A stretch of DNA of 61,048 bases from Amoebophrya sp. A120 (Eukaryota; Protista; Dinoflagellata): contig CAJINV010000003.1 in NCBI GenBank assembly GCA_905178155.1, forward strand, positions 5,484,728 to 5,545,775, given 5' to 3'. Position 1 is the stretch's first letter. Every line of letters begins with the position of its first letter. The translations under genes and the position numbers were made by a program. The notes below the pieces were generated by a model. That model had not been told where the DNA came from, did not search any database, and saw nothing but the letters and a program-made list of their open reading frames with translations. Below are positions 10,001-55,047 of this stretch, in pieces.

Positions 10001-13000
10001 AACCAGTAGTCCTCCGCGAAGTTCGGAGTAGCGCAGGTGGCGTTGTAGAAAAATTCCTGGAGGTTGCCCGCCTTGCGGACATTCCAGAACGAAACCACGG
10101 GGCTGGCCTTCACCGCGTTCGCGAACATGCGCGTGAGTACACGGACGTTGCCCGTTTGCCACCCGGTCACGTTGGGCTTCGCGGCCGTGGCCGACTCGAA
10201 CATTGACATCATGTCCGTCACCTGGCGCACGTCCCACAGAGTCACAGCTGGGTTCGCCAGCGGCAGGTCGCGGAACAGGTGGGCCAGGTTCCTTGCGCTG
10301 CCCGTGTTCCAGTTCCCCACTACCGGCTGCGCCGAGGCCGCGCCGCGGAACATCGCACCAAAGTCCGTCACGGCGGAGACATCCCAGCTCGACACCGCGG
10401 GATCCGCGGCAACCGCGTTCTCGAACATGCGGCCGAGGTGCCTCGCCTTGTTAGAAACCTGCCACTTCGAGGTGTCGGGAACCACCTCAGCGCCGGCGTC
10501 GCGAAACATCCCTTCGAAGGTCTGCACGCTAGAAACGTCCCAGTTTTCCGTGGACGCCGCTGCTATCGTCACCTGCGTGCAGCCCGCGAAGAGGTTACGA
10601 AGGCTGGTGGCGGCCCCCAGGGCCCAGGACCCCAGGCCAGCAACGGTCGTTATCCAGTGCAAACATCAATATGTCTGGGTCTGGAAACTTGTGACGCTAA
10701 AATGTGGATGATGGAGACACTTTCGAATGCACCAGCCCAGCATGACATCTTTCCAGAACGCTTTCTCGTAGGCAGTCCGCATGAGAAACTACCGCGTTTT
10801 TGCATGACAAAAATGGCTGCCACTTCTTTTGTTGGTTATGCAATCCAGATCTACTACCAGAAATGTAGAGCTAGCATTACAAATTCCAACTTTCCAGACT
10901 CAGACACATTTGCATTTGATAGTCGTGAGCCCGGAGCAATCCTGGAACGCAGCGTCGAAATTGCGGACCGTCGACAGGTCCCAGGTCGCGGTGCTGAGAG
11001 CGGTGAGGGTGGCCGCTCCGCGAAACATTCCGCTGATGCTGCTCACCGCTGGCGCGCCCCAGTACCTGCGCAGCAGGGACGGGCGGACCGAGTAGGAGCT
11101 GTCCCCCAGAATGGTGGCCCCGTCGTACAGGTTCTGCAAAAGCCCCGGCCCGTGGGGATCCTGGTAGCCGACGTTCAACAGCTGCGTCCACGCGCGCTTG
11201 AACGTCGTGTATTGGTTCTCCTGTCCAGATGAAGTCCTCGAGGGCTGCCACCCGGTGGTGAGTCCGCGAAATCGCACCGTCACCACGTACTCGCCGGTCG
11301 TACTTATCGCACAGAGACAGAAAGTTAACGCTTGCCATAAGCATTCCACTTGGATTAAGAACTTTTTCGCGATAGGATACGAGAAGGACGCACGGAAGAT
11401 GAAGATCTGTCCTGCAGCAGCATCTCTTGAGCAGAAAGTACTTAGTTCCAATTACTGCCTGCCCAATATTAATGAATGTCATGACACTTCTTCATTCCTA
11501 CTTTACTTTGTCAATTATTCTACCCGGGGCCATCATCATTTCCAAATGCCAACAGCAAAGACCAAAAGGCGCGCTAAAATTTTCTGCAGGATATTCTCGT
11601 AAGTATACGAAAAAGAGGTCGTCGCAGCCACCGCGGTCCCGCTGTTTGCCGTGGCGTCCCGTGTCACATTCGGGCCACTACCGGGCACGCCCCAGTAAAC
11701 CGTGACGCGGCTCGCGTTGGAGGAGCTTACAGCTTCGGGGAGAAGCGGCAGCGTCACAGTGTAAGGAACGGTGTCGATCCGGAGTTTCACGCGGAAGGGG
11801 TCCTCCTCCCCGGGACAGGCAGTGTCGGCCCCGTCCGCCGTCGTGGCCAGTTCCTCTGCCGTGGGCCCCGACAGGTCGGCAATATCGTTAAAGTGTGACT
11901 GGTCAGAGCAGACTTGATTAGCCAGAGAAGTGTCGCCGGCGGAGAAGACTCCGGCGCCCTGCAGCATCGTATCGGGATCAGGTCCCAATTTCACACTCGC
12001 ACGGAAGTTGAGGCCCGCCAAGTTGGGCGTGGCACAGTGCGCATTGACAAAGAGATTCTGCACAATTCTTGCAGCAGAAACGTCCCAGAGCCCCACACAT
12101 GGGACTGCCACTTTTGCGCCGTTGAACATCTGTTGCATGTTCGTAACCTTGGACACGTCCCAATGCGTCACGTTCGGTCGCGCGCTGATCGTCTTTGAAA
12201 ACATGAAGCTTAAGTCCACGGCATTTCCCATCGACCACTCCCCGGTGGCGGGGTCCGCCTTCCTCGCCTCGTGGAACATCGTCTTAAAATTTGAGCCCCT
12301 GCTTGTGTCCCAGGCGGAGGTGTCCGGCGTCGCTTCCACTGTGCCACGAAACATTTCCGCGAAATTTTCTACCTGGCCGGTGTTCCAGTTCGCGACGTCC
12401 GGGTTCACTTTCCCGGCCAATTTAAACATCCCCTCTAAAGTGGTCACGGCACCGGTCTGCCACGCGCCAAGGTTGTCGTCCGGGGGAAATTCCAGCTCAG
12501 CACAATCCTGAAACATTCCCTCAAAGCTCTCTGCACTGGAGACGTCCCAACCGCCGATGCCGGAGATCCGCGTGACCTTGGAATCTTCGAACGCAAAATT
12601 GAAATTGCGGACCGTCGACAGGTCCCCTCGTACAAGGGAAGGCACACCCGTACCAGAAAAGGAAACGACTTTTTGTACTTATTTGCATTTGCGGTGTGGT
12701 GATGTGACGAAACTCCGGTAGAGGAACGAAAACCTGCCACGCAACATACATAGTGACTGCATCGCGAAAAAGAAAATGTAGTGCAAGCTTCTTAGACAAA
12801 AAAATATTTGTCAGGCGAGCTTGAAGAGCTGCCCTCGTCCTGTCGTTGGTTTCCTGGATGTTAATTGTTAATCGCGAAAAAGACAAAAAGCTCACAAAGG
12901 TACCACGAAGATCAAGATTTCTGAAGATGATAAACAGACAACAGTCGCCACCTTTTGAATTTGATGCTTTTCGTGCCACGAGACTGCGTCACAAGCAATA

Positions 13001-16000
13001 TTTCGTAGTATGGTATGGGCGTGCTTCTTTTTGTAGGATACCCAGGTCGCGGTGCTGAGAGCGGTGAGGGTGGCCGCTCCGCGAAACATTCCGCTGATGC
13101 TGCTCACCGCTGGCGCGCCCCAGTACCTGCGCAGCAGGGACGGGCGGACCGAGTAGGAGCTGTCCCCCAGAATGGTGGCCCCGTCGTACAGGTTCTGCAA
13201 AAGCCCCGGCCCGTGGGGATCCTGGTAGCCGACGTTCAACAGCTGCGTCCACGCGCGCTTGAACGTCGTGTATTGGTTCTCCTGTCCAGATGAAGTCCTC
13301 GAGGGCTGCCACCCGGTGGTGAGTCCGCGAAATCGCACCGTCACCACGTACTCGCCGGTCGTACTTATCGCACAGAGACAGAAAGTTAACGCTTGCCATA
13401 AGCATTCCACTTGGATTAAGAACTTTTTCGCGATAGGATACGAGAAGGACGCACGGAAGATGAAGATCTGTCCTGCAGCAGCATCTCTTGAGCAGAAAGT
13501 ACTTAGTTCCAATTACTGCCTGCCCAATATTAATGAATGTCATGACACTTCTTCATTCCTACTTTACTTTGTCAATTATTCTACCCGGGGCCATCATCAT
13601 TTCCAAATGCCAACAGCAAAGACCAAAAGGCGCGCTAAAATTTTCTGCAGGATATTCTCGTAAGTATACGAAAAAGAGGTCGTCGCAGCCACCGCGGTCC
13701 CGCTGTTTGCCGTGGCGTCCCGTGTCACATTCGGGCCACTACCGGGCACGCCCCAGTAAACCGTGACGCGGCTCGCGTTGGAGGAGCTTACAGCTTCGGG
13801 GAGAAGCGGCAGCGTCACAGTGTAAGGAACGGTGTCGATCCGGAGTTTCACGCGGAAGGGGTCCTCCTCCCCGGGACAGGCAGTGTCGGCCCCGTCCGCC
13901 GTCGTGGCCAGTTCCTCTGCCGTGGGCCCCGACAGGTCGGCAATATCGTTAAAGTGTGACTGGTCAGAGCAGACTTGATTAGCCAGAGAAGTGTCGCCGG
14001 CGGAGAACACTCCGGCGCCCTGCAGTATCGTATCGGGATCAGGTCCCAAATTCACACTCGCACGGAAGTTGAGGCCCGCCAAGTTGGGCGTGGCACAGTG
14101 CGCATTGAAAAAGAGATTCTTCACAATTCTTGCAGCAGAAACGTCCCAGAGCCCCACACATGGGACTGCCACTTTTGCGCCGCTGAACATCTGTTGCATG
14201 TTCGTAACCTTGGACACGTCCCAATGCGTCACGTTCGGTCGCGCGCTGATCGTCTTTGAAAACATGAAGCTTAAGTCCACGGCATTTCCCATCGACCACT
14301 CCCCGGTGGCGGGGTCCGCCTTCCTCGCCTCGTGGAACATCGTCTTAAAATTTGAGCCCCTGCTTGTGTCCCAGGCGGAGGTGTCCGGCGTCGCTTCCAC
14401 TGTGCCACGAAACATTTCCGCGAAATTTTCTACCTGGCCGGTGTTCCAGTTCGCGACGTCCGGGTTCACTTTCCCGGCCAATTTAAACATCCCCTCTAAA
14501 GTGGTCACGGCACCGGTCTGCCACGCGCCAAGGTTGTCGTCCGGGGGAAATTCCAGCTCAGCACAATCCTGAAACATTCCTTCAATGTATTACAGTGAAA
14601 AATGGGTCACCCTGATCCGAAGTTTCCAAATGAAAACTTTTTGTCATGCATGAAAGGAGTGCCAATCTTTCTGATGCAGAGTCTAGGCGTATCTAGCATC
14701 GCTTGCATGGCAAGCGGGAGCGCCGCTCTTGCTGGGATCTTTTGCAATACAAATATTTGCTCTTCACGATTGAAAACCTGTGACGCTGATAGATGCAAGA
14801 GGGCGAGTATTCCATTTGGAAAGGTTTGCAATACAAACGCTCCCAAGTTCTGGGGTGGGGGCATTTTTCATTGTAATACAAGGCTCTCTGCGCTGGAGAC
14901 GTCCCAACTGCCGATGCCGATGATCCGCGTGAGCTTGGTCATATGAGCAGGCACAACTCCTCCTCCCCCTCATTTGAAGGGCACGAGCAGCGGCAATAGA
15001 AACAGTGACAGAGTTACCCCTAGCGCTGTTGCTGTAGCTTTTGCATTACAAGTCCAGACGCGGACTGTATTACTGTCTGAGTTGTACTCCAGTTTGTCAT
15101 GCAAGGCAGCGCTACATAGTACAAGTACTACAAGGCAAGAGCAAGACCAAGAGCTCGAGTCGCAGCTTTGCATTACAATCAAATGAGGGGGACGGGGGGC
15201 GCTGGGCGCTCTGATAGGTCATGCCAGCGAACGCGAAGCGGAACGTCGTCACCTTGCTCACGTCCCACTGCCGAGCGTCAAGCTCGGTGATGCCGGAGTC
15301 CTGCAGGAACCGACTCATGTCCGTGTCAAGGAGAAAAATCCCCTCCCCATATCAAATTCTCTGGCGCGGGATTTCAGGACACAAATGTTGAGTCCTGTCT
15401 TGCAGTAGAGGACTGCAGGCGTATGCCAGGCCTGAGGCGCCGCGAGGTTTAATTTTGGCGTAGGCAGCTAGCATGACAAATGTCTGCGCTGTAAGCCCAG
15501 CAGCATCGCCACAATCCGCCTGCAAAGTGCGGCGGGCTCCCTGGATAATGTGCCTTCTTGCAACACAGACAGGATTTGTGGGCACAAACCTCCAGCACAA
15601 ATTTTGATTTTCAGACGGATGGCGCGCTTACAATATAACTCCTATTGCTGAGCGGTGTGAGTTAAAAGTTTGCGCCGGGAACGAAAACGATCAGCCTCGG
15701 ATTTTTTTTCGCAAGTTTAAAACTTTCAGGTTCTTCGACGAGTGTGCGAAGCTCTGTGTTCAAAAATTTTCGCACAACTTTGAAAGTTTCAGGATCTTCG
15801 AAGAAAGTGCGAAGATCGGCGTCGTTTCCTTCGGTGGGTCGTTTATTGCGGAGAATTTTTCTGGCGCGAAATTTCCGCGCGCGAAATATTTTGCCGAGCC
15901 GAATTGTTTTCCCTGGCGCCTTTTTTTTGGACAAGAATATTGCGCGCCCAAAATATTTTGGCCGCCGCGGTTTTTTTGCTGAGAGCAAATTTATTTTGCC

Positions 16001-19000
16001 CGACGAAATTTCTTCGCTGGACGCAAATTTTTTGCGGCCAATTTTTTCGCGCGCGTCCATCTCTCAACTTCCATCGCAAGCCCCATCGCCCAACTCCATC
16101 GCCCGACTCTCATTGCCCAACTCTCATCGCCCCACTTCCATCGCCCAGCGCCCCACTTCCATCGCCCAACTGACATCTTCCACCTCCGCGCTTCCGACTC
16201 CCATCGCCCAACTTCCACCGCCCAACTCCCATCGCCCAACTTTCATCGCCCAACTCCCGTCGCCTAACTTCCATCGCCCAACCCCCATCGCCCGACTTTC
16301 ATCGCCCAACTTCGTTCCCGCGCGCGAAATATTTTGGCCACTAAATTTTTCTGGCGCAAAATTTCCGCGCGCGAAATATTTTGCCGAACCGAATTATTTT
16401 CCCTGGCGCCTTTTTTTTGGACAAGAATATTGCGCGCCCAAAATATTTTGGCCGCCGCGATTTTTTTGCTGGGAGCAAATTTATTTTGCCCGACGAAATT
16501 TCTTCGCTGGGCGCAAATTTTTTGCGGCCAATTTTTTCGCGCGCGTCCATCTCTCAACTTCCATCGCAAGCCCCATCGCCCAACTCCATCGCCCGACTCT
16601 CATTGCCCAACTCTCATCGCCCCACTTCCATCGCCCAGCGCCCCACTTCCATCGCCCAACTGACATCTTCCACCTCCGCGCTTCCGACTCCCATCGCCCA
16701 ACTTCCACCGCCCAACTCCCATCGCCCAACTTTCATCGCCCAACTCCCGTCGCCTAACTTCCATCGCCCAACCCCCATCGCCCGACTTTCATCGCCCAAC
16801 TTCGTTCCCGCGCGCGAAATATTTTGGCCACTAAATTTTTCGGCGCAAAATTTCCGCGCGCGAAATATTTTGGCGAGCCAAATTTTTTCCCTGAGGTAAT
16901 TTTTTTGGCCAAGGAATTTCGCGCGCGCAAAAAATTTTGGCTGTTGGAAGTTTTTTGCTGGGGGCGAGTTTTTTTTGGCCAGCGAAATTTCCTCGCTGGA
17001 GCAAAATTTTTCGCGCCCAATCTTTTCGCGCGTCCATCTCTCAACATCCATCGCAACGCCCATCGCCCAACTCCCATCGCCCAACTCCTATCGCCCAACT
17101 CCCATCGCCCAACTCCCGTCGTCGGACTCCCATCGCCCGACCCTCAGCGCCCAACTCTCATCGCCCAACTCGCATCGCCCGACTCTCATCTTCCACCTCC
17201 GCGCGCCCAACTCCCATCGCCCAACTCCCATCGCCCAACTTCTAGCGCTCAACTCCCTTCGCCTAACTCCCATCGCCCAACTCTGTTCCCGCGCGCGAAA
17301 TATTTTGGCCGCTGGAGTTTTTCCTGCTGGAAAATTTTCCGGCGCGCGAAATTCGCGAAATTTTTTGGCCGCCGGAGTTTTTTTGGGTGCGTGGAGAAAT
17401 TTTCTTGGCGCGAATTTTTGTTCGCGCGCAATATTTTGGCCAGGACATATTTTGTCCCGAAGGAAGAATTTTTTTGCGTCGAATTTTCTCGCGGGCGCGC
17501 GAAATATTTTGGCCGCCGGGATATCTTTGCTGGATCCAAAATCTTTGCGGACAACTTTTTTGCGCCCAACTCGCGTCGCCTAACTCCCGGCGCCCAACTC
17601 CCGTCGCCCAATTCCCGTCGCCCAACTCTAATTGCCGACTTTTATACGCGACGGCTTGCGCGCGCAAGTGCTTTTGGTGGGTGTGGGGGGAGGGTGGTGG
17701 GGCTCGGCGCGCAAAAAGAAAAGGCCCAAAGCCCAAAAGCATTCGGCGCTGGCTGTCGAACGCGCTCACTCTTCTCCAGGCTTTACGACATAAGCTCGCG
17801 CCTCCCCTCGCGGGCCGTGCGTCTCTCTATCGCTCTCTCTCACTTTGAACACGCTTGGCCTGCTCCGGATTGCCGCGTCTTCCCGAGGTGCGTTCTTGCG
17901 CTTGCTTTGCTTTGTTTTTCGCGCGTCGTGTTTTCTGTGTCGTTCCCTCACTCTTCGCAAAGCCATTCGGTCCCTTCCTCGGGGATTCCAAATTCATCGG
18001 CCTCGACGAGGTTCTCCAAAGTCGTGACAGCACTATCACGATAGAAGTTAATTTGTCGCCGCCACCTCGGGCGGCTTAGCATCGTGTAAACAATTCCGTG
18101 GAGGATCCAAATCGTCGCGATCGAAATAACGTACAGAATGTGTGTCAGGCGGAGGAGCCGGGGCGGTGGTGGCTGCTAAATCGCTTCTAAATTTTGCGGG
18201 ATTTTTCAAAAACGGCCTTCCCGGGGAATATGCGAACGGCGCCGCACCTCAAAAGGGGGGAGAAGAAAAAAAGCAAAGACGAGATGGGGAAGGCAGAGGC
18301 AAATGGTGCGGGCCCGAGGAAAAGAAGACATAGGAGAAACTCCGGCGCGGCCCCCTGCGCACTGCTGGTGGGGAGAAGCCCGGAGAAGCGCTGCAAAATA
18401 CGGAGAAGCAAATCATGGGGCCGATTTCGCAGACGAGATGCGCACCTGCCCCGAAGCGCTCTAAATCGCACTCTAAATGGGTATGCTAAATGGGGGCTCT
18501 AAATCGAGCCCCTCTAAATGGCATGCTAAATGGGGGCCCTAAATCAAGCCCCTCTAAATGGCATGCTAAATGAGCATGCTAAATGAGGGCTCTAAGTCGC
18601 ATGCTAAATCGCATGCTAAATCGACCCTCTAAATCGCATGCTAAACCAGGCCTCTAAGTGGCCTGCTATAGCATGCGGGAAAACACCCTGTCGGAGCACC
18701 GCGAAATTACCCAAAACCCGAAAACCTTCCCGAAAGCACTGCGCTTCGGGATTTAGCGCAATCTCGCGGGGTGCCGAAAAGGTGTTTTCCCGCAGGACGC
18801 GGCGTCACAATGTCAAGAACTTCGGGTTTGCAACGCCGGAGCGGAAGGTCCGACCAAAACAGCGACACAAGGACTGTCCGGAAAAGGACCGGACAACAAG
18901 GCGCCCAACCCCCCGACGAAAGCATGGACGAAAAGCAAAAAGGAACAACGCGCCCGGGGTCACCCAACAAAAAAACCAACGTCCCCCTCGACCAGGTGAA

Positions 19001-22000
19001 GGCCACGACACCTGGAAAAGACACCCGAGACAGGGGCGCCGGCGCCCTGGAATATGGAAAACGATACCCAAGGAAACGGCCCAAATTTTTAAATTTTAAT
19101 TTTTGCCCACACGCCAACACGTCCCCCAGGTGGTACACGGGCCCGGCGCGAGCAGTTGGCCCGGCCAGCGGGGCAGGCAACTCACCAAGCGGGGCCACCG
19201 CGGCGGCGCGGCCCGACTTTGCAAAGCCCTCCAGAAGGGGCGCGCCCCACTGCGCATGGTTTTGGGAAATCCCGGAAAATTTAGAAGATATTTAGCAGCT
19301 TTCCCCGCCCCGGAGCCCTCCGACTGATGTGTGGCAACACGGTTCGGCCCTGAAAACTGTGAATCGTGCTGACCACGCACGGCCGGACGCCGATCGCAAG
19401 CACTAACCAGCGCGACGCGGGGTCTCCGTCGCAATCTTCCTGCCAGGTGCTGTTGAGGGGGACCGGTTCTTCGCATCCGTCCACGTCGAAACGCACGTCC
19501 ACAAATGTGCGGCCGAACCCTCGAACAGTTCCGCGCGAATTTGTGGCGTACGTTTTCCCGAGTAGCCGGAGCGGACCAGTTAAGGCGATGCGCTCGCCTA
19601 AGAAGAGCTCGAGTTTTTCAGATTTGGTGGATTCTTCTTCGTCAAACCCCTCCATGAGGGGGTTTTGCAGATTGAGCAACCGCGGGCAGTAAGTTCGGCA
19701 CGTCGCACCCTTTGCACGCAGCGCCCGCGCTCGCACCGCAAGAACACGGCGCCGCTCTCGGTGGCACCCGACCACGATTTCCACGCCGTTGACTGCTTCA
19801 ATGCCGCAAGGCGCGCCGCGTATTCTTTCATCCAGCCACTGATAAGAATACTCGACGTCCTCCGCCCCCACTCTTCCAAACGTGGTCAGGTCGATTTCTT
19901 TCGTTTCACCAGTTCGCACCCGATCAAGCTCGCGGCTCCACTCTTCCTCGAAGAAGCGCGGACTGCATCCGCCGTTGTCGATGCGCACGCGCCGAAACCG
20001 CGCGAGATTTTGCACAAAGTGCGCAAATGGGCGAGAGGTAGGCCCGAGAAAAGAGTCCATGGACCGGAACACTCGCACGACGCTCGCAAGCTGATACGTG
20101 TCGCAAAAAAAGAAAACGCGCTTCCCGCCCCAAAGTTTTGCCGGCTCATCCGCACTGGCAAGATTTTGCAGCTGCTCCCAGTGCAACGCCTCCCGGCCAA
20201 TATTTTCTGCGCAGCGGGTACACCACTCCGCGTTCGCCATGGCAACCTCATCGATTACGACCCAGTCCGCGGCTCCTACGAGGGCGCGCTGCTCCTCGCT
20301 CCAGGCCGCGCTGTCCTCAAGGTCAATAGTCAACCCGCAGCCGTCATGCATCGTCTTGCCGTTGATGATGGTCGCTGCTTGCCCCGTTGCGGCAAGGATC
20401 ACGATGATGAGTTTCCTTTCGTACGCTATAAGCTCCAGAGCGCGAATTATCTTGGCCTTGCCCGCTCCTGCCGGTTCGTTGCAAGTCATCAGGTCTGCCG
20501 CGCCTTCGTCTCCTGGGTCTTCGTCGACGATTTGGTAGAGGGCAGCCTTCTGGCCCGGCATCAGCTCCAAGGCGTTTGGGTTGGCGCCGTGTAGCAAATC
20601 AGCCAGCTCGCGCGCGTGTTCCTGGCGCTTTTCCCTGTTACGGGCGTGGTAACATTTGATATAGTGGCGCCGCTGCTCCAGCTCGCTACCAAATTGCTGC
20701 AGGTGCGCCCCTGCCTCTGGCAGCGTCATTCGAATGATGTGCCTGTCTACCCCATCGCGCTCGAGCCTTTTGGCGATGACATCTAGCGGGATGCCATGCT
20801 CTGCCACAAGCCAGTCCCATGCTGCTCGCCGGGCTTCGGTGTCGAAGTTCAGAAAATACTTGACGAACAACGTAAGCAGTCCACTCTGCGGCCGGAGCTG
20901 GTGCACTTCGTCGAGGAAGTTGCGAAAAGCAAAACGCTTCATATGGGCGGGATAGTTCCACCGTGCCATGCTTGCTTCAGGGTCGTCGAAATACTCCTGA
21001 ACGTCCGCGCGGTTCACTAAATGCAATCCGCACAACCAAAGCAGGTAAGTGTCGTCGTGGTGGTCTGCACGAAGATGGAAGACATTGCGCGCGGGGTCAA
21101 GATTCGCGAGCATTTTGTCGGTCTGCTGGAGCGCCAGACTCGCGCCCGCGATTGCCACCCGGTTCGCAACCAAATAACAGCGAAAGGCCTGCAGCTGGGT
21201 GAGCTCTGTTACGACGCCGAGCCGGTTGGGGGCCGTGAACTCCTCTTCGTGCAGGTGCTCATGCCATTGGGCATACACCTCAACAAAGCGCCGCGCCCCG
21301 GTGCTCCTGGTGTTCAACGTGAAACGCTCGAGAGACCACGCGGCGTACTTTTCCGGGCGGTCCAGCCAGTTATTGACCGCGTCGGCCGCCGTCGCGTTAC
21401 CAATGAAGAGGGGCGCGTCCTCGATTCGCTTGCGGTCCACTATCACCGTCACCAGCCGTCCCCTCGGGAGGTGCACGCCGAATCGCGACACCCCATACAA
21501 ATCCGCCGCGGCTTCCGAAGCTGGCAAGACTTGCGCGGAATGCAGCGTCTTTATCTCATCGAACCCGCCTTCCTGCTCGAACATTTGCCAAGAACCTTGA
21601 TCCGAATCACGGCCGAGCGGCTTGACTTTCTTAATCGGGTACGTGATCACATAGCGAATTTTGTTCGCCCCACCGACTCCATTTGCGTGCGTGTGCGCCA
21701 AAAACCGACAGAAAGTCTTCTTATCGATCCCGACACACATTTCGTCGCCCTCTTTCGTTTCGATCTGCAGGAAACCCTTTTCATCGAGATACGTTTCGGC
21801 GACAAGCGCAGCCGGGCAAAGTTTCTTACACTGAACGCGCCCCGGCACCCGGCAGGCATCCGTGTGATGGTGATAGAAAACACGATCGGCAGTCTCGCGC
21901 CAGCGCCCACATTCTTCAGGAATCCAGTCCCGGCTTCGCTCGATAAATTCATCAAACGCCGTGGCAGTCAGGAGCGGGTCGGCAAACCAGGTAAGGCTGT

Positions 22001-25000
22001 GCCGGTGTGGCCGGCCCTGGGTTGGCTGCGGTTCGTCGCCCCAAGTAATCGCTGCCGTTTCGCCGTACAGACTCTCCACCTCTTCGACATGCTTGCGCAT
22101 TTTCGCCTGGAACGCGCGCACGCTCGGGCACGGCTCATCGAGAACGGGGCAAGATTTCCACGGCCGCCGCTCCGCTTCTGCTCGCATTTCTACCATGTCG
22201 TCGCCCTGCGTGGCCGTTGTCATCAGGTCAGCAGCCCCAAGCTTGCGCATGATCGCAAACGCCTTGCACCGCTGCGCGTTGACTTCTTCTAATGAGCCCG
22301 GAATGTTGGCGGGAAGGCGTTTCGGCAGTGCGCCGTCGTGGCTCGCCGCGTAGTGTGCCTGATACGCCAAGACGAGGCGCTGCCGTTTGTTCAAGGCGTA
22401 GCGGAGCAGAAGCACCTGGTGCAAATCATACAACACGGGCGCCGTCATTTCGGGGCGGGCAAAATACTGCCGCAGAAAACTTTCGAGCGATACGCCCTGC
22501 GGTAGCGACAATCCGTTGACAAACAAAAGCGGGAACTCAACCCCTAGCAGCGACTCCCACAATTTGGTCAATTCCTCACGCTTGATGTGCATGCGCCCCG
22601 CGTCCAAGTCGTTTTCTCGCTTCGTAGGGAAGAAAATCTCCGCCCCGTTTCGCATGTGCGCAGGCCCAAGGCGGCAAGTCACTCCACAGACGCCCCCGGC
22701 ATCCACCCAGCTCCAAACCAAGGCCCGCGACCGGGTCCGGATCTAATAAATAACGCCGAAACTGCGGATGGTTGTACACCGGGTGCCCGCCGTCGGGGCG
22801 CGCCAGTAGCTCAAACATGGCGAGCGCGTCCCGTTTGTCTGCCGCGGCCGGTCGCGGTCGCCCTTGGCCTAAAGAGACTGCGACGCTAATTCCCAAATTT
22901 TCGGCGAGGTAATTCGGACACTACAATCCCGCCCCGAAAGCAAACAACTGCGCAGCATGCGGAAAACGGTCGCTCGGCCGCCCCATGTACTTGCGCGCGC
23001 GCCCCGTATGCTGCCGCACGTTTCCAGGCTCAAATTGATACCGCATCATCGAGACGGCGTCGCTGGCGCGGGCGTACCGCGTTGCCGCATTTTCGACGCC
23101 ATCCCATTCGTTCGGGTAATCCTCGCGCCCTGCTATCAAATCGCTCCAGAATTCCTCCGACAAAGCTTCGGAGCCGTTTTTGCAGAGCGTGCAAGTTAAC
23201 TGCTCCCCCGAGTGCTCGCAGAAAGTCGCCTCTGTATTTTCGTACACCCGAACCGCGCACCACTTACAGGGCACAGCAGCCGCCGCCATTTCTTCGAAGA
23301 GGTTCGGCGGCCGGGGCGTTTGAAATTCTGGCGCCGCGAAGGCATTCGAGCGGATGGCGCACGGCCTGCAGAGATTGTCGCAACGAGCCGGCCCGCGCTG
23401 CGCCTTTCATAAACAAATCACATTTCATGTGCAATTTTTAGTCGATCGCTTTCGAACCAAAATTTTTGAGCCGGAAAATTTGTATTGCACACTGAACAAG
23501 CAACTTTAGGACCAGCAATTTCTACTGCACAGTGGAACTGCAATTTTTGAACACCGAACTTTCGACATTTTGAACTTTCAGCTTCTTTTTGTCACTTCGT
23601 GCATCATCACATTATTTGATTTCAGGACATGATCATCACATTATAACTTCATGCGAAAACTAATTTCGAGCGACGTTCTTCACCACTTCCCACCCCATCT
23701 CTTCCTTTTTTCTTTCCCCCTTCGCAAACTCGTTTACCCTCCCCTTGCACGACATAAGCTGTCCCCTTGTAATTTATGGGAAGGGGCGATTTTTCATGAC
23801 AGTAGTCCGTTACGAGCGACCAGTCTGTTTTGGCGAACGCGGAGGTGGCGTTTATGGTAACCACCCCCGAGGTGCTATCCTAAGCAAAAACGTCCCCACC
23901 CCACAGTCAAGCTGGGAATCTAGTAGCAACACAAGTCTTCAAGTTTTGGGAGCTGTGCATGACAAGTTTCCCTCTGCAGTGTAGTGCTGGTCGGCAAGGA
24001 AAGCCGCATGAGAAAGCCATTTATTTCTCATCCTGTTTACAGCATTACAAATTTCAAAATACGATACCATTGGAAAAAATGCCTCTTATGGCGCTGCGCA
24101 TTGCAAATGTTCCTGTCAACCTTCTTGCCCATTTGCATGACAACTCTGGAGTGGGGACGTTTTTACTCAGGATAGGTGCCGCTGAGGAGATTTGGAAGTA
24201 CGTACCCGTAGGAGGAGCCAAAAGATTCTACGCTGCGCAGCGCGTCGCGCCAGTTTTGCAGGTAGGCAGCGGTTATTAAATGCAAAAATGTCTGGGTCTG
24301 GAAGTGAAGAGTCATGCTGTTTGTGCACGACACAGAAGGTGGTCTGGCATGGAAGCTCTAGCATCACAGGTTTCGAGAAGCTTCCGCAATGCCGGATCCG
24401 CATGACAAATCCCCCATTTTGGTGACAGAAATAAGTGGGCAGCTTTTGCTACCTATGCATGAGAGATTTTTCTGTGTTCTGAAATGCGCATCACAAGTTG
24501 CATCCTTCCAACCCAGACATTTTCGCAGTGGATAGCGTTGAAGCCGGCGGGCGCGGCGACCGTGGGATCCTGCCACCCCAGAAGACGGCCCCGAATCGTC
24601 ACCGCGTACTATTAAAGTGAAAAAAGCCCCCACACCATATCGAGTGACGCATGCTGTATTTCAGTAAGTACACAAATCCAATTTGTGTTGCAGCAGAGCA
24701 CTGCACGCAGCTCGCAAGCCTAGGTAGGGGCCTCTTGGTGTAGGCGCCTAGCATGGTAGACGGCTGCCCTGTAGTAGACCCTACAGCGTTATAAATCGCC
24801 TGCATAACGTGCCGGGCAGCCTGGACATGGCAAGCCTTCTTGCAAGACAGACGCGATTTGTGGTCACAAATCTGCATCACAAGTTTTCAGATGGGTGCGC
24901 TTTCAATATGGGGAGGGGGGATTTTTCCTTACGATACGTACTCCCTATCAAATACAAGTCGTGTGGCTGGGTCTGCAAAAGTGCATGATCAACGTTGGCG

Positions 25001-28000
25001 ATGCACATTTTTTTTGGATGACCCATGATGTCTGTGAAGATGTCAGCATAGATAAAAATTCTTTCAGAGTTTCTTGATGCTTATCGTTATCCCGCAAGAG
25101 GAACAGTGCCGTCTCCGCATAGTAAAAACTGAAGCCCTCATCTTCTTGCTGCTGGAGCTGGTCATGATGCAAGAATATATTTAAAGATTAATTTTGTTAG
25201 AATCACAGCTAAAAATGATCACAGCACGACAAGTTGCAGCATTCTTCCAGACCCAGACAGAATATTTGCACTTTGTACTCCCCAGCGTTGGCGTACGTGT
25301 AGTTGAACGCGGAGAATCGCGAGAGGTACACGTTGGGAGGCGTGTCGTCGGGGGTATCACCGAACTGCACCCACGGCGCGCCGGTCCAGAAGAGCTCCCC
25401 CAGCTCGGTAGAAGACGAGGAGGCGCCCGCCGCGCTCGCGTCGCCCCAAAACACGGTGAAATCGTTGTCGTGGAACGGCTCGAGCCCGTTTTCCAGGTAC
25501 CCGCTGACCCAGTTGGTTGGCACGTTTAGGGGCAGCTGCACGGTGGTGCCAGGCGAGGTTATAACCTGCTCAGGTGTTACAATCTCAATAAACGTTACAA
25601 TAGAATCTGGAATTTGTCTTGCAAGAAGTGCATGATCTACCACCCTACTCCCACAGGATTCCGCATGACAAGTTTTGGAGTCCCAGTCCGCACTACAATC
25701 TGGCGAAATTTGTATTGCAGAAAGTGGAATGCTGTCCGAGTCTGTCGTGTTGATCATGCAAGACAAATCTCAGATTCTATTGTAACGTTTGAGATTGTAA
25801 CGCTTGAGCAGGTCATAGAGGTGATCTCGATTTTCACCCGGAAGGCGTCGTCCTCGGCGCACGCGATCTGGTCGGTCGCCAGCGAACAGACCGCGTCGTC
25901 TATTACAGTAAAAAATGCCCCGACCCCGGAAGTTGCAAACGTTTCTCATGCATAAGGTTTTCAAATGAAGAGCTAGAGCTTTTTATCTATGCATGAAAGC
26001 ACTGCGAGTCTTTCTGATGCAAAATCTAGACTGCGCAAGGTATCTTTTTTTGCATAACAGATCCGCCTGCTGTTGGGCTCCTTTGCAACGCCAATTTGAG
26101 CTATTCAGCATGGAGTAAGAGTCTCTGTGATGCTGATATATGCAAGAAGGCGGGGAATGTTTCCATTGGAAAGATTTGCATATACAAATACTGCCGAGTG
26201 CTGGGCGGGAGGGGGCATTTTTCACTGTAATATCGTCCAGAATGTCCGTCCCCAGCGCGGAGCGAATCGGACGCTGAGACTCGTTCAGGCCCCCGTACCG
26301 GAACCCATATTCGGCGGTGGTCTCGTCGTAGCTCGTGATGGCCACGAAGTCCCTCATCCGCGACCACCAACTGTTCACGTTGGGGGTAGCACAAGAGAGA
26401 CTCCGAAACATGTCCCCGAAGTCGGAGGCGTTGAAGCTGACGTTCCAGTGGGAAACACAGGGCGACGCGGACGTCGCGCCGCTGAACATTTCCGAAAACC
26501 TGAGCCCTTCTTCCACCCGCCACCCGCGGACGTCAGGGTTGGCGCTCGTCGCGTCCTTGAACATGCGGGAGAAGTCGGTTCCGCTGGAAACGTCCCAACG
26601 TTGCGTGTCGGGGTCAGCCAAGGTTGCGCCCTCGAACATGCTCGAGAAATCGGCGCCGCTGGAAACGTCCCAATACTGCGTGTCGGGGTCAGCCGAGGTT
26701 GCGCCCTCGAACATGCGGCTGAAGTTCTTCCCGCGGGACACGTCCCAGTTGCCCACGATGGGGTTGGACTGGTTAGCCCCCAAGAACATCGCTCCGAAAT
26801 CCGTCGCGCTTCCCACCGTCCAGTTCCTGAGGTCCACCACCATCTGCGGCGAGGACGAGCCGGAGCCCCCACTGAGCGCGCTGGACAATTGCCGCCGCCC
26901 GCCTCCGTCCGCGGGCCGTCCCGTGAGGCCCACGCAACCGTCAAACATCCCCGCGAAGCTTGCCACCTTGGCCGTGTCCCAACCGTACACGTTGGGATTC
27001 GCGTTTGCGGCCCCCGCAAAGACGCCCGTCATGTCCTGGACATTGGAAGTGTCCCACGAGGCGACCGCGTCGTCCAAGTTCAGATTTGCCATGCCAGAGA
27101 ACATCCCGGACAGCGATTTCGCCTTGGAGGTGTCCCAGGTCTCCAGACCGACCAGCTCGGTGATCGCCGTGCCGCCTTCGAACATTTTCTCGAAGCTGGT
27201 GATCTGGCTCGTCACCGAGGCGAGCGCAGACAGGTCCAGCGCGCCGGAGAGTTTGGCGTTGCCTTGAAACGCCCCCGCCATGGACCCGGACGCCGCGAAG
27301 CTGGTCGCCAGCTCGGTCAGCACCTCGGGCGTCACCTCTTCGATCTCACTGAGGGGCGGCCGCGGCTGCGTGGCCTTGCTCCGACCCCGCGAGAGCACGG
27401 TGGTTTGCATCGTTTTGTAATTGGTTATTTTGGCCTGGTCACTCTCCGCCAGTTGGGAAATCTCCTCGTCCGTCAAAAATGTCGACCGAAACCGCCCACG
27501 CACGACGACCTGGCGGGTGCTGTCCAACGCACTGGCGTCATACGTGTGCTCCACCGTCAACGGGCTCTGCAGCGGTCGCCAATACTTCAACAGATTTCCG
27601 ACAACGTCCGTCGCCAGTGTGAACAGTTGGACACCGCACACGGAGATTCTTCCCTTTCCGTTCCGGTGATTGGTCCCGAACCTGATCTGATTAGTCGATT
27701 TCCCCTGCAGATCATGAACCGTGCCGGTCCCTGCCGTTTGGCCGTAGTTGATGTTTAAGTTTACGGCTCCGTATCCCACGAGTGTGTACCTCATGTAACT
27801 TATGTCACTACTATAGCCTACCCAAAAGATCATCTTGGTCAGGGAGTACGTCCCCCCCAGATTAAGAAAGAATTTGCCATACTGATAGTCCCTGCTCTGG
27901 TAGCAGGAGGTGACGCTCGCGTGCTCAGACGCGAAGGAAAGCTGCTCTTCCATGTTTGCGTGGTTCGGATCGAAGCGCAACGGGTTATCCTTCCCCAAAT

Positions 28001-31000
28001 GGGCCGCGTAGGACTCTCGATGATAAGTGGTCATCTGCGATAGCGGCAGCTCCACCTCGGGGGCATCGTACAAGGGGACCTCGCGGGTGTCGTCCTCGTC
28101 CCAGAAAAACTGCAGGTTTGGTTCTTCCGTGTCTGCCACCGGGAAGCGGACCGTGCGTTCCTCGCTGGTCGTTCCAGTAGCGGGAAGCTTGAGTAGGGCC
28201 CGGTAGGGGGTGTCGCTGGGACAGTGCAGGTCGCGGCCCGGGCCGTCGATCGCGCCAAACAGGTAGTCCAGGTTCGCACATTCCGTCGACAACCGCCCCG
28301 CACCCTCCGCCCAGCGGTCGACGATCAGACCAGCCCAGGCTTTTGCATCCGGCTCGTCGAAGATGGCTCCCATGGTGCCCCCGCTGGAATACACCTTTTG
28401 CAAGGGCCATCCGGCGAGGTTTGGGGTGGCGCAGGGGGCGCCGCGAAACATGGAATTCATCAAAATCCCGTGCGCTGGCAGGGCATCCATGTTCTGTCCG
28501 GTGATGGAATTCGACCGTGAGAAAACCAGCGCGATCGTCTCGCCGAGCGTGCGCGCCACAGCTTCACGCGCGGCACTGCCGACAGTTGTATTCTCGGGGA
28601 CATACATCATGGACCCAGCCACGCGCCAATCCGTTACGCACGGCGCCAGCTGCTTCGCAAGGTTGAACGCGTGGCGAAAATCGGTCCCCCGGGACACGTC
28701 CCACGCGGTCACATTGGCGCCCCACCTGAGGCTCTCTGCACCACGGAACATGGAGTTAAAAGAGCCCACACCCGAGACATTCCAGTTGTCCACCCCGGGC
28801 TGAACGATATCGAAAGGAGAAACTCCCCCTCCCCATATCAAAGCGAGGCTTCTGATGGTGGACTTCCACACACAAATCAGATTTGTCTTGCAGTTGAGCA
28901 CCGCAGGCATATGCCGAGCCTGAGTCGAGAGGTTTTGACGTAGGCGCCCGCGCCTAGCATGGCGCCAAATGTCTATGCTGTAAGCCCAACAGCATCACAA
29001 ACCGCCTGCATAAAGAGGCGGACTCTCTGGAGTTGCCTCCTTGCAAGACAGACAGGATCTGTCTCTGTGGTCACAAACCTACATATACAAATTTGCAACC
29101 GGATGCGTTTTCAGTACGGGGAGGGGGGATGTTTCCTCACAATAGACGACGCGCAAGATTTCGTTTCCGGCCACGTCCGGGTCTGCGACCAGCCCGGATT
29201 CCCCCAGCATCGTGAGCTTCTTGCAGTCCCGGAACATGCCGGCAAGCGATGCAACGCCAGATACATCCCACGTATGCAGCCCGCGCACACTTGTTAGCTC
29301 CTGACAGCCCCTGAAAACATTTTCCACCTGTCGGAGAGGGGCACAAGAACTTCTAGTACCGGGGCCAGGGACAGAAGCAGAGGCGGCCGCTCCCGCTCCA
29401 CCAAGGAATCCTTGTCCTTGGTGGGTTTTTGCAGCTGAGCGCGGCTCTAAAGGCGGCAAAAAGCCAACGTCTACGGCAGTCAGCTTGGTGGCCCCTGCGA
29501 ACATGCTTCGGAGCGAGTACTGGCATGGCGACGCTGCGAGGCTTGGGAGCGGCGCCGGACCTCCTCCTTGCTGGCTCGCAGTCACGGTTTCGTGGGCAGT
29601 CGACAGCTCTTGCCGAAGACGCGTAAAGGCGGCATCTGTGGCGACAAACGTTTCTAGGTGTTGGCTCCCCCGGAACAGGCCCGGCACCAGCGCGCGGCGA
29701 CTGCGGCCCAGCGCAAGCACTTCTGACCACGGCGAGTTCCGCGCAGAACTGGAGCCGTCCGGGGTGGCAAAGGAGGCACCAAGCCACCCTGCGATTTTAC
29801 CTCGAATCGTCACATGGTACGTCCCGGCGCTCCGAAACACGTGGCGAAGCTGCGGCTTTTCGCATCGTAGAGTGCGGGGGTCAAGCAGAAACCCGTCGTT
29901 GCACTTGCGGCAAGCGTTTGCGCGCCTCTTCAGCGAGACCCGTGCGCACGCCGGGAAAATGGCAGGTTCCCCGTTGGTGCACTGACATTCGCTACCCGCG
30001 TGGTAAATGGTGTATGCTGTACACGCCCCGGCCGGACACGGTAGAATCCTCGCCTTCTCTGGACAGTGCCCGACCGTCGCAGGCGAACCATCGACAATCG
30101 TGGCATGGAAGCTGCTCCCGGCCGCCGGGCAGGAGGTGGAAAGGGTGACGTCCGTGCTGCTTCCGAACGCTGCGGTGTACGATTCTGCATTGGGTTCGGG
30201 CCGACCACTGCTCGGCTCAAGCTCGATCTTTCCCGCAGTCGTCGCTGTACCATCGTGGTTGGCCTTGGAGACGAGCCAACCGTCCGCGGCATCTTCCTGC
30301 AGGGTAGTTGACCAATAGACGTCGCCACTACTTTGCACGAAGCCCCAGGTAACCACGTTACCCTTCGCAGGGAGCACCAGCTCGCGCACACTCAAGCCCG
30401 TCTAACCTGTGGAAAAACGTCCCCGCCTCAGAGTTGTCACGCAAATCTGCTTGCTTAGAATCAATGCTTCTCATGCGGAGCACCATGAGAAGCACTTTCT
30501 ATATTGAAGTTGTGTTTTGTTGTTTGTGATGCTTAAACCGACCGAAATTAGTACAAACGCGCCTTGCATGTTCCCCTTCCGCAGATGGTCGGGCGTCCAA
30601 TGCACGGAGTCAGACGGACCACCAGGGCCATCGTCATCATTCTTTGGGGTTTGTGATCGTGATGCTCGAATCAGCATAATGTTAGTATACATTTGTAATC
30701 CTGCACCTGCTGAAGACAAGTAGGTAAACAGGATTTTTTTGTTATGCGCAACAGGCAAGAAAGCTGAGTGATTTGTCTACTACTTAGCAGCTTGCCCATC
30801 GTGACAGACTCTGGAGTGGGGACGTTTTTGGTCAGGATACCGTCCCCTCCTCAACCATCTCGCCCAGGGCCCGCGCCGAGGCCGCGAACCGAACCTGGTC
30901 GCTCTCCTCCTCGGGCTCGGTGTAGTCCGCTACATCCGACACGAACTCTTGGCCGCCGACGGTGATCCTGCGTTCCGTAGGTGGCGGACCTCCTATGGCG

Positions 31001-34000
31001 CGGTACCGCCGCGCGTAGTCGGCCGAGATGGTCCGCACGTCCTCGACTTCCCAGCCGTATCCGGTGTGGTTCAGCTTTTGCGCGGCACCGGCCGTGTACG
31101 CGGTTTGGTAGTCCACCCGGTCCCGGGGCAGAAGCGCGAGCTTCGCTTCGACGCGGCTGAGGGTGAAGTCCTCTACGAGCTTTTTCCCGGGGTAGTACCC
31201 GATACGGGTGAAGCGGCGCACGGCTCCGCGGTCCAAGCGAAGCGGCCCCGCCGCCTGCGCGGCAGACGACGGGGAAGCCCCGGCCTTGCGGAGCTGCAGG
31301 TGGGAGGATCCAAACAAAGCCGTGGCCCGATCCAAAACCCCAGATACCGTGCCCAAATCGGCGTCCGCAAATGACCACGCGAACGTGTGCCGTTCCGGCT
31401 CGTGGTCCGCCTGTATGCCCCACGTCGTGGTCAGTGCGTTGGCCGCGCCGTCCGTTTCCCGCTGCTTCAGATCGGAATCATCCTTCAACGTCCACCTACC
31501 CGAACTCGTGTGGTCCGTGAAAATTTTCAGGCTCGGCTGCCCAGCGTCATAGCTGTGATCTTGCTCGGACCAGGTCTCCCCCGGTTCGTACCGGAGAAAA
31601 AAGTGGGCGCTCGACCCGACGAAAGATTGGGAAAACGTGCTCTCCCAGTGTACTAAATGGTCGACGTCGTCCGGCACATCGTAGAAAAGAAAATCGCTGC
31701 CCCATTCGCTGGCAGAATGTGCGTACGCAGGATCCGCATCGGCAGCAACGGGCGCTTTGAATGCGTTGCAGACGAAGTTGTGGTCCCGCGAGGCGCCCGC
31801 TTGCTGCTGCGATATGCTTTCTTGGATACCCGCCATGGCATTGCAGAGTCCCCCCGAGTAAGCCGCGTTAGAGACCCATCCCGTGACATCGGTGGCAATC
31901 TTTAGATCACACTGAGACGTGGCGGTCGAGTGCCCATAGCTGGTGCAACGAGTATGAGCCTCGCACCGCCTCCGGCATTCTTCCGGGGTCGCGACGGAAG
32001 AAATTGAAATGTCCTGGGCGCCATCGGTAGTGGCGGTTTCGCCGGTTCTCATTTCGCAATTCTTGCGAGCCTGGACCATCGTCATCGCGTCCGCTTCGGT
32101 CGCGAGAGCTGCCGCCAGCACAACCGAACCGGCCTCCTCTTCAGTCGAACGCTGTGCCGGCAGCACGCGGACCGCGCCTTCTACTATCCAGCAAAAAACA
32201 CCCATCCCCAGATGGGTGCATCATCATCATCATCATCATGTAGTGCACATGACAAAGAAAACTGCCCTTGAACTTGATGCATTTTTTGCATGACAAATTG
32301 GATCATGGGGATGGGTGTTTTTTCCTGGATATCCACGGGCTTGATTCGACTCCGGCTGCTGCGGCCGCGGCCGTCCTCGTGGAGCTCGGGGTCTCCGTAG
32401 GCCCGCGCCGCGGCTTCGGCGAGACTAGGCGGAATGGCACAGGAGGCGCCTTGAAAGCCTTCGTGTCCCGTCGTGCCTTGCGCATTGCTCGCTTGGTCGT
32501 GCAGCTGGGGAGACACGAGCTGGCACGTGTTCGTAGCCGCCTCATGTTGCCAGCCGGTGCAGCTGGGGTGCCGCTCGCATGCCGCTTGGCAATCTGGCGC
32601 CCCGGGCGTCGTCCACGATGCCAAACTGGAGGGCATGTGCGCCGCGTCTCCGTGGTAGGCAAAGGTGGCCACGCTGGGCCCGCAGGTCTTGCGCGCGGCG
32701 GGGTGCGGGTTGCGAGCGGAAACTAACCCCGGACACGGATTGGACCCATCGAACGTATCAAAGGCAAATATGTCTGGGTCTGGAAAGTTGGAATCTGTCA
32801 TGCTAGCTCTACATTTTTCCTGGGAGATCTGTATTGCATAACCAACAAAAGTGGCAGCCATGTTTGTCATGCAAAAACGCAGATTCTCATGCGGACCACC
32901 TATGAGAAAGCTTTCATCTGGAAAGTTGTCATACTGGGCTGCCTTCGACAGTGTTTCCATCATCCACATTGTAGCATCACACGTTTCCAGACCCAGACAT
33001 ATTTGCAATGCATAGAACAGCGGCTGATGCATCTGAGAGAGTGGAATGTAGTTGTGATTCACCTTGAAGTCCGCTACGTAATCCTTCGGGTAGAGAAGTC
33101 GGTCCACGACTTGGAGGCTTGGCTGCGCGGTCCTTTCGGTCGAAGGGACCCGCTCCGCGCGCGCGCGGTGCGTCACTGTGATGCGCACCAAATCTGCGTC
33201 CTCGCGAAGGCCCTTCCTCGCGTCGGGGGTCGCCGTGGCAGTCGTTGCCCAGTTATCCTGGTCCGCGTGCTGGGGCATCCCAGCCTCATCGGCAACAGAC
33301 GGGGGCAGTTGACTCGCGCGCGCGGGCGCGTGTCGGACCGCGTACTTGGCGAGGTGCTGGGTAGAAGATGGGTCGGAATTCGTGGCAGACGTGGCAGCCT
33401 CGACGTGACCAAGCAGAAGGTCGTCTTCATCCTCGTGTGCGATTACAAAGCTGCCGCTCGAGACTGGAACATCATGCTCAAGCCCATCGATGGTGAGTGG
33501 GACCGCCCCATTTTGCAGCTCGCTGGGATGAAGCCGCATCGGCGTCGGAAGGTTGTGCCTCATGACTTCGAACACGTTTCCGTAGGGTGCAGCGCTGATC
33601 GCATCTGCAGATATCGCTGGTGGTCCAGGAGGTGGTCCTATTTCAACCTTGTAACTACCACCTGGGGCGCTCGCACTGCCCGGCCCAGCGTTGTTCGTAA
33701 TCACCCGGTCGGCAAGCGCAAACACGTTGTGCCCCAGGGCGCCCGAGAAGTCACCCGCTAGCTCTGCAACGTTGTGGGTCGCACGTGAGGTGGCATCCAG
33801 CCGGACATCCGGGGACCCGGTGCGGCGCTCCTCCGCCAGGACATCTGCAGACGTGCCCACGCTGGTAAATTCATCGCCCCAATAAACGGTAAACGCGTTG
33901 CTTGGGAGAGAAAAATCGATGGGGAGAGCAACTTCCTGATCGGCAACCGTTGTGGTAACAATCGCACGAAAGGGAGTGTCATACGGACACTGTAGGTCTC

Positions 34001-52221: not shown

Positions 52222-52290
52222 TATCAAATGTAAAAATGTCTGGGTCTGGAAGAATGCAACTTGTGATGCTGCATTTGGATTCCAAAAAAA
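52222..52290. mobile_element. Left end of a family A introner; remainder displaced beyond the window by nested elements
   Basis: TATCAAATGTAAAAATGTCTGGGTCTGGAAG preceded by ccttc; no matching right TIR in the window. Confidence 0.85.
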
Positions 52291-52919
52291 TCGAGCAAGA
52301 AAAAGTTTCGGGTCACACCATAAAATTAATTAAATAATTACAAAAAATGAAATTAAACGCAGCAATTCATTATTTACCACAGCACGCCCCCGATGGTACG
52401 GCGGGCCTTGTCGGCGCCTCCGGGCCGCAGCGCTTTGCCGGCCTGGCAAAACCAGGGGCCGGCGATTTCGCGCAAAATCCATGCGGCTGGTCAGACGCTT
52501 CCACGCCGCCCCAGGACCAGCAACAAGTCTGGGCGCCGGCCAGCGCCTTGCCGCTTCCGGGCGTCCTACGCGCGTAGGGAGCCCGGAAAAGCCCCGCGGC
52601 CTTCTTTTTTCGGGCGCCCTACGTACAGGCGGGCGGGGCCGGCGGACCAAAAAGTCGCGGCAACCTTCGCCCGGCGGTAGCTTAGCAGCTGTCCCCCGAG
52701 CCCGAGCCAACCGGCCAACCCGCTCTGTGATCTTCGTCACGGCGAACTTTTTCGCCAAAATCGCTGGGCGACAATTTCGTGGCCCGTCCCCACACCTGGC
52801 CAGACGCCTCCGCCCCAGCCATGAAGTCAGCCACAAATCCGGACGACGGGAACCCTGTCGCCGTTTCCGGGCGTTCTACGGGCGTAGGGGGCCCGGAAAC
52901 GCTCGGCGGCGTTCCGGGT

Positions 52920-54610: not shown

Positions 54611-54750
54611 GCGCAGGATAAAAAGAAAGAACCACGCGGCCCATCATAATAATGACGAGCAACGCTCTATGCTAAATAACAACGCTTATTCTACCAAGTC
54701 AATAAGTCAGCTACTAGGTCCATCTAATTAATTAGTTAGTCTATGACTAC

Positions 54751-55029: not shown

Positions 55030-55047
55030 TTCATTCTGACTCACACT

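Follow-up and report, generated by a model that had tools for sequence, protein, structure and literature searches.

Can the same element serve as an intron in either orientation? The branch point and polypyrimidine signals of spliceosomal introns are directional, and the question is raised by a stretch of 61,048 nucleotides (nt) from the dinoflagellate Amoebophrya sp. A120 (GenBank assembly GCA_905178155.1, contig CAJINV010000003.1, positions 5,484,728 to 5,545,775 of the forward strand), hereafter the window. Two genes in the window are interrupted by introner elements with terminal inverted repeats (TIRs). A first-pass annotation proposed that the elements at 10651-10921 and 32756-33014 belong to one subfamily, lie in opposite orientation and both act as introns, all needed signals being symmetric (TIR plus a bidirectional motif). 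The orientation ratio proved to be unbiased, and removal is needed in both orientations. We infer removal from RNA from the reading frames, and removal has been published for this element class.

Inverted copies and the orientation ratio

The window catalogue contains 43 elements, of which 34 were identified using a strict end-and-repeat search and nine, with damaged ends or repeats, were added by hand. The focal elements, 271 and 259 nt long, both start with TAT and end with ATA. Their global identity is 229/274 columns (84%) after one of them is reverse-complemented, and 171/305 as they lie. The ends are inverted repeats and could drive the score, so 35 nt were cut off each element end before local scoring, with 400 shuffles as a control. 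The trimmed pair scored 260 inverted and 35 on the same strand, and the shuffle maximum was 32. The peptide ICLGLETCDA.MWMMETLS lies on the plus strand in the 10651 copy and on the minus strand in the 32756 copy, as the annotation stated.

The other inverted pairs named in the annotation gave the same picture after reverse-complementing. Trimmed scores, inverted and same-strand respectively, were 251 and 34 for 8210/50821 (family A), 172 and 24 for 6670/23876 (family E), and, in family B, 186 and 57 for 1443/24610, 220 and 41 for 1443/28808, 159 and 64 for 36060/24610, and 210 and 41 for 36060/28808. The family D pair 5798/39571 was the weakest (80 and 35). Every host frame is on the minus strand, and the inversion is therefore real relative to transcription.

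The orientation ratio was determined on a sample rather than on the whole genome. At least 163 stretches of a second assembly matched the commonest end pattern, and they represent 158 loci (L001-L158). The search pattern tilts this sample towards one family, and it covers coding insertions only. The loci share families with the window, with copies up to 96% identical. The element detector recovered 34/42 of the window elements listed at the time with no false call, made one call in 153 kb of shuffled loci, and found 330 distinct elements in the 158 loci. Host strand was assigned using a codon model, which was correct at 39/40 window junctions in cross-validation, confident at 240/330 locus elements and concordant in 52/55 multi-element loci. 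The orientation set comprises these 240 locus copies plus 39 window copies (279), 247 of which were assigned to 16 families.

Over the 247 copies the ratio is 50:50. The largest family divides 68:67 (95% interval 0.42-0.59), or 62:61 without the window copies. The next families divide 9:9, 11:7, 11:6, 7:5 and 5:3, followed by smaller ones. Both orientations are present in 14/16 families, and the chi-square over the 16 families is 15.9 (p 0.46). Within the largest family 0/3057 links conflict in orientation. The closest pairs include 22 in the same orientation and 18 inverted.

Reading frames and the case for removal

Frame restoration was scored as removal of each element plus 5 nt; the left border of the element ending at 47331 was fixed by frame only. 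If kept, 42/43 window elements cause a frameshift or stops. The sole exception is 32756, which with its 5 nt amounts to 264 nt without a stop in the host frame and could stay as an 88-codon insert. The pair named in the annotation therefore cannot prove removal in the second orientation, although other pairs can; the claim that one element serves as an intron either way is supported for the families, and that pair is its weakest example. A copy of the same subfamily and orientation as 32756, at position 301 of locus L111, brings a frameshift and four stops if kept. In the two sets together, 271/276 copies would shift the frame or introduce a stop on retention (132 in one family orientation, 109 in the opposite one and 30 unassigned). 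In the second assembly, removing the element plus 5 nt opens a well-scoring frame at 187/330 elements, while removing 3, 4, 6 or 7 extra nt does so at 44-53.

The acyl-CoA oxidase gene of locus L062 carries ten elements and also holds canonical GT-AG introns. The largest family is represented 2:2 by orientation within this one gene, and another family 1:1. Among named relatives, protein P0002 of Amoebophrya sp. A25 is the best hit (87% identity over the searched exon). With each element plus 5 nt removed, the oxidase aligns to P0002 without gaps at 10/10 junctions, several of them in tightly conserved stretches. At one junction, in a variable stretch, removal of 8 extra nt beat removal of 5 on the homologue mean, and the closest orthologue is gap-free with 5 nt.

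Removal of the element plus 2 nt, which would place the cut one base beyond each end and leave an extra codon, was also considered. It scored below removal of 5 nt at 10/10 oxidase junctions and is disfavoured. It would create a new stop in 3/276 copies, with 3.5 expected in the absence of selection.

The flanking repeat may not be needed for removal. At 1946-2307, 11305-11593 and 45707-46382 the repeats match at only 1-2/5 bases, and the frame is still kept when the element plus 5 nt is removed. Elements 24610-24936 and 24946-25277 are only 9 nt apart (24937-24945), which leaves a net exon of 4 nt with the frame kept.

If the genes were dead, or the inverted copies simply retained, nothing would need removing. 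The open insert at 32756 fits such a reading, as does the exon beside it, for which no protein relative and no record of the spliced host protein were found, one of the searches being limited to proteins of 647-2000 residues. It is nevertheless hardly credible. The larger host gene runs for 6541 codons free of stops and frameshifts once 29 elements are removed, and in 5/5 comparisons of paralogous exons, in one of them only slightly, third codon positions differ most. The oxidase is intact, and over the exon searched it shares 87% identity with the A25 orthologue. Open in-frame copies number 5/276, with 6.0 expected by chance.

The elements could also be skipped at another level, by DNA excision in the expressing stage, by RNA polymerase sliding between the 5-bp repeats, or by a ribosome hop. 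A symmetric element between direct repeats suits all of these routes, the loss always being the element plus one repeat, and some published junction reads could stem from reverse transcriptase jumping across hairpins. We consider such skipping very unlikely. A DNA run, possibly the source of the window, has an even exon depth of ~45, and it has contigs that cross exon-element borders (for example 32307-32783 and 32989-35735), so the elements are present in DNA. Known ribosome hops span ~50 nt, not 150-3000. Farhat et al. (PMC7789003) also describe introns that are missing from RNA and present in the assembly.

For RNA, no dataset is listed for positions 26000-35700 of the window, which has no bearing on expression or splicing. 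Three RNA runs carrying the same species label gave 101, 2 and 13 reads on 23000-42400, all partial and none over exons, and are uninformative on expression and splicing. About 95 RNA reads of run X5 carry the end of family A, as at 37126-37159, fused to unrelated flanks, which points to an unspliced or non-genic copy transcribed from another locus.

Element ends and the search for directional signals

The window elements have the sequence published for A120 introners, namely TAT, seven variable bases, at least three A, and repeats at the borders. TAT is found at 40/41 on each side, and A at positions 11-14 in 28-36/41. The 5-bp flanking repeats of 38 window elements contain nine mismatches in 190 positions, the chance of 4/5 matching being 1.7%. 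In loci and window together, 54 copies have one duplication mismatch, which by hand count lies at a third codon position in 31. Empty paralogous sites were found for 14588, 5798 and 1004, each lacking exactly the element plus 5 nt, which indicates insertion with a 5-bp duplication. TIRs, a fixed-length duplication, empty sites and random orientation are features of MITEs (miniature transposable elements with inverted repeats) and other non-autonomous TIR DNA transposons; repeated families, non-canonical borders and ends able to pair are those of A120-type introners. The elements are short, non-coding sequences with inverted-repeat ends that likely spread as non-autonomous DNA transposons.

In predicted folds both strands form a terminal stem averaging 27 pairs, with at least 10 terminal pairs in 119/120 folded copies; the predicted folds of the focal copies have z values of -2.25 and -3.88. 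Element lengths span 147 to 3130 nt and exons reach down to 4 nt. The longest element (2613-5742), whose ends are those of the 25560 family and whose 5-bp duplication is perfect, interrupts gene 1 as the short ones do. It contains a 256-codon frame (4840-5607, minus strand) with an OTU cysteine-protease domain (E 1e-11). No transposase was seen in it; of five frames scanned, the four besides the OTU frame had no Pfam match. One element among the second-assembly loci is 834 nt long. The end pattern had 0 matches in viral contigs, and Rfam covariance models run on the whole window gave 0 matches at the gathering score, for self-splicing or any other RNA family.

No directional feature was detected in the ends, the interiors or the flanks. 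At none of positions 1-14 does the end that is 5' in the transcript differ from the 3' one. Pyrimidines make up a share of 0.553 near the 3' end on either strand, and the yeast-like branch motif CT[AG]A[CT] near the 3' end shows no sense excess (16 sense, 20 antisense, n=279). No column differed after correction in four subfamilies split by orientation, and neither AG nor GT is enriched in the target duplication. The features of a U2-type intron (GT/GC donor with AG acceptor, directional branch point, pyrimidine tract) were not found. Cryptic canonical sites in each orientation would have been another explanation, and they were looked for. Neither focal copy has an in-frame GT/GC-AG pair within 12 nt of its borders, and GT/GC-AG in any exact register occurs in 17/276 copies overall.

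The annotation's bidirectional motif exists in the largest family, where TGT(C/G/A)ATG reads inward 30-45 nt from both ends (111 and 115/135 arms). Other families have it less regularly (41 and 30/105), with 42/105 lacking it in both arms, and there is no sign of its use. The idea that all needed signals are symmetric was supported as far as directional features go, and the need for an internal motif was not. As 3' arms do not conserve the motif any better, it may be a site for the transposase instead of a branch point.

The end variant TATGCAT, hinted at by the window as a mark of the transcript 5' end, was rejected, as 14 copies of the largest family have it only at the 5' end and 21 only at the 3' end. 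Selection on the stem as RNA was looked for as a G-U excess among stem mismatches, and there was none (134 G-U, 134 A-C). Matching of the two ends within a copy was slightly above shuffles in 2/4 subfamilies (p 0.017, 0.007), which shared descent can also give. Canonical introns, for which 50 candidates were found (four on the control strand), have imprecise borders in this set and yielded no clear branch motif.

A phase bias was found. The middle three duplication bases form a whole codon in 130/276 copies, in both orientations, comprising 120/238 in the loci (p 1.5e-7) and 10/38 in the window. A target-sequence preference as its cause was rejected; it predicts 36%, and 47% was observed.

The phase bias implies that something in the host filters insertions, and it lends some colour to a weak directional signal, in which degenerate branch sites, RNA-edited borders or exon signals would give each orientation its own sites. 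The 5' arms are also marginally nearer the consensus than the 3' arms (23.8 vs 23.3, p 0.12), and a degenerate branch adenosine is available in any AT-rich strand. A hidden signal of this kind still appears improbable, given that k-mer, column and dinucleotide asymmetries are not significant after correction, that the focal borders lack nearby in-frame GT/GC-AG, and that possible editing is reported at 2-4% of borders (Farhat et al., PMC7789003).

Mechanism, neighbourhood and relation to known introners

The elements are very probably true introns in both orientations, and recognition is likely to be symmetric and guided by the ends. The 50:50 ratio, the lack of strand asymmetry and the lack of target preference require that the recognised feature be on both strands, which points to the ends. 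On balance we favour direction-independent introns that a modified spliceosome, with the paired ends and not directional signals as its guide, takes out along with one duplication copy. The least certain part is that the chemistry is performed by the spliceosome and not by an endonuclease plus ligase, two routes that sequence alone is unable to separate.

In the proposed scheme the two ends would pair into a stem of ~27 bp on either strand and keep the cut sites together. Whichever end comes first would present TAT, and a cut one base upstream would produce N-T-A-T, resembling a GTAT donor whose first base is free. The second cut would fall four bases beyond the closing ATA, and the element plus one duplication copy would leave the pre-mRNA. 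With such a cut the phase-biased copies would be phase-0 introns. This register yields published A120 motifs in 56/276 copies, while other exact registers yield 0-33, and the nine commonest A120 non-canonical motifs in Table S4 of PMC7789003 all have T as second base. GTAT begins 15/50 of the noisy canonical intron candidates (hand count). In A120, Farhat et al. 2021 (PMC7789003) describe non-canonical introns that have RNA support and TAT-N7-AAA repeats, and a set of most or nearly all spliceosome proteins with U2, U4, U5 and U6, no U1 having been found. A tunicate preprint (10.1101/2025.08.15.670264) describes removal of such introns by a U2-type spliceosome in Fritillaria.

Several observations weigh against this scheme, besides the open frame of 32756. 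No junction read was obtained for any copy to show removal, its efficiency or the register of the cut. The 90/330 second-assembly elements that lacked a confident strand call were left out of the ratio. Equal numbers of G-U and A-C mismatches give no sign of selection on the stem as RNA, and stem positions 4-7 are often unpaired (position 4 in 151 and position 7 in 113 of 279). A 27-bp stem would need to be opened for small nuclear RNAs to bind. No branch point was identified, which a spliceosome normally requires, and the inward motif does not favour 3' arms. The codon-phase bias has no explanation. Where a junction falls inside a repeat is a matter of how the aligner places it, and the published motif table is therefore only a hint to the register.

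Much of the same evidence suits a non-spliceosomal route, in which the stem would be cut at both feet by a structure-reading endonuclease and the exons joined by a ligase, with no branch point involved. The transcript strand shows no preference for a donor, acceptor, pyrimidine tract or branch motif, a stem forms on either strand, and 4-nt exons and elements of 147-3130 nt are treated alike. The failure to find U1 in A120 (PMC7789003) agrees with it, as do euglenid hairpin introns, reported to exit as circles without lariats (PMC11282704) and to have end repeats that matter for splicing (PMC12501133). We regard this route as the less likely one. The organism retains a spliceosome for ~35% canonical introns, GT-AG introns share the oxidase gene with the elements, and the U2 spliceosome of Fritillaria can take transposon-derived non-canonical introns. 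No candidate enzyme was found, and none was searched for.

The features are collected in Table 1.

Table 1. Host genes, introner elements and their parts in the window
Feature	Position	Strand	Remarks
Host gene 1	1..12678	-	Frame of 2200 codons, from a stop to the window edge, once 11 elements are removed; DUF285 repeats
Host gene 2	23652..52220	-	Stop-to-stop frame of 6541 codons once 29 elements are removed; DUF285 repeats and PAN domain
Introner element, subfamily C	10651..10921		271 nt, TAT...ATA; 3 host-frame stops if retained
Target duplication, left copy GTCGT	10646..10650		Flank of 10651 element
Target duplication, right copy GTCGT	10922..10926		Flank of 10651 element
Left TIR of 10651 element	10651..10688	+	Inner border approximate; transcript 3' arm
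Right TIR of 10651 element	10888..10921	-	Inner border approximate; transcript 5' arm
Inward-reading subterminal motif, variant TGTGACGC, 10651 element	10690..10697	+	
Mirror subterminal motif, 10651 element (GCATTACA on +)	10874..10881	-	
Introner element, subfamily C, inverted relative to 10651	32756..33014		259 nt; open in host frame, 88 extra codons if retained
Target duplication, left copy GAACG	32751..32755		Flank of 32756 element
Target duplication, right copy GAACA	33015..33019		Flank of 32756 element; one mismatch
More distant subfamily C relative, orientation as 10651	39981..40216		Frameshift if retained
Family A element, inverted relative to 50821, 37126 and 41574	8210..8490		Frameshift if retained
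Family A element	50821..51096		Frameshift if retained
Family B element, orientation of 36060 and 46456	1443..1760		Frameshift if retained
Family B element	36060..36384		3 in-frame stops if retained
Family B element, inverted	24610..24936		Frameshift if retained
Family B element, inverted	28808..29144		2 in-frame stops if retained
Family D element	5798..6016		Paralogous exon 10024-10152 is exactly without element + 5 nt
Family D element, inverted	39571..39936		Frameshift if retained
Family E element, orientation of 36729, 47541 and 49769	6670..6939		Frameshift if retained
Family E element, inverted	23876..24174		Frameshift if retained

The family B element at 45707-46382 has damaged ends and a second element, like 44759, nested inside it (46028-46364). 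A further family B copy (15322-15636) and a lone family A end (52222-52290) lie near the 5' ends of the two genes with no matched duplication. Gene 1 contains a direct duplication of 1545 nt (10980-12524 and 13041-14585, 99.5% identical), which is recent or an assembly artefact, and element 14588 follows just one of the copies. Between the genes an intron-free frame of 1153 codons (19284-22742, minus strand) encodes Helitron-like N-terminal and PIF1 helicase domains. Tandem arrays lie upstream of gene 1 (15854-17600, a 14-nt unit within a 490-nt period) and of gene 2 (52899-54640, a 93-106-nt unit). A Copia-like retroelement occupies 54751-61048, with 271-nt direct repeats (54751-55021 and 60778-61048, 99%), an RVT_2 match at 58426-59427 and a weak integrase match at 56836-57918.

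In anatomy the elements are no different from the A120 introner elements described in PMC7789003, which share the TAT-start inverted repeats, the seven variable bases, the A run, direct repeats at the borders, a length of ~240 nt, many families and the lack of fixed splice dinucleotides. The repeats there are given as 3-5 nt in variable places; those of the present elements have a uniform length of 5 bp and adjoin TAT...ATA directly. Introners of Polarella glacialis and Aureococcus anophagefferens (10.1101/2020.10.14.339549) are likewise described as non-autonomous, with inverted ends, duplications and several classes in either orientation. Those classes rely on GT/GC/GA donors, with an acceptor that is either carried along or recruited, depend on particular target sequences and, where it is stated, are biased to one orientation; here there is no bias, no GT/AG and no target preference.

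The introns of Fritillaria borealis (PMC11282704, 10.1101/2025.08.15.670264, PMC13326754) are similar in being MITE-derived, with inverted ends, duplications and non-GT/AG borders, and are reported to be removed by a U2 spliceosome. They differ in fixed border motifs (AG-AC, AG-AT), a preference for TAC targets and the retention of U1. Euglenid nonconventional introns (PMC11282704, PMC12501133, PMC11170887) have ends that pair, non-canonical borders and a proposed MITE origin. They differ in a border consensus, CAG/CTG motifs and a reported exit as circles, and the parts of these papers that were available do not mention orientation.

The element class, to which the annotation did not assign these copies, and either-orientation introners in other algae are already published. 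The main text of PMC7789003 uses "orientation" four times, always of gene blocks, lacks the word "strand" and does not report element orientation relative to the host gene. Opposite-orientation matches were allowed in the method of Gozashti et al. 2022 (PMC9860276), and a 2025 paper (PMC12130899) discusses A120 introners without orientation in the portion available. No report of orientation for Amoebophrya introners was found in the literature covered here; Figures S19-S25 of PMC7789003 and Dataset S2 of PMC12130899 could hold one. The new part is the unbiased orientation, without a detectable directional signal, of non-canonical introns; in the literature as available to us it was not found.

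The genome paper, as far as it was available, left the removal route of the Amoebophrya non-canonical introns open (PMC7789003). If any insertion can turn into an intron, and not just one that landed in a favourable orientation or target, this accounts for how large the invasion is. The orientation symmetry suggests a design for a portable, scar-free and orientation-free intron. A bolder possibility, to be held only tentatively, is that a fully direction-blind machine removes tens of thousands of Amoebophrya introns and needs no donor, acceptor or branch point. It would read only the paired TAT...ATA ends and rejoin the exons leaving exactly one target duplication. If this were true, any insertion into a gene would be silent at once, and an alveolate would possess a second, non-spliceosomal system of mRNA splicing.

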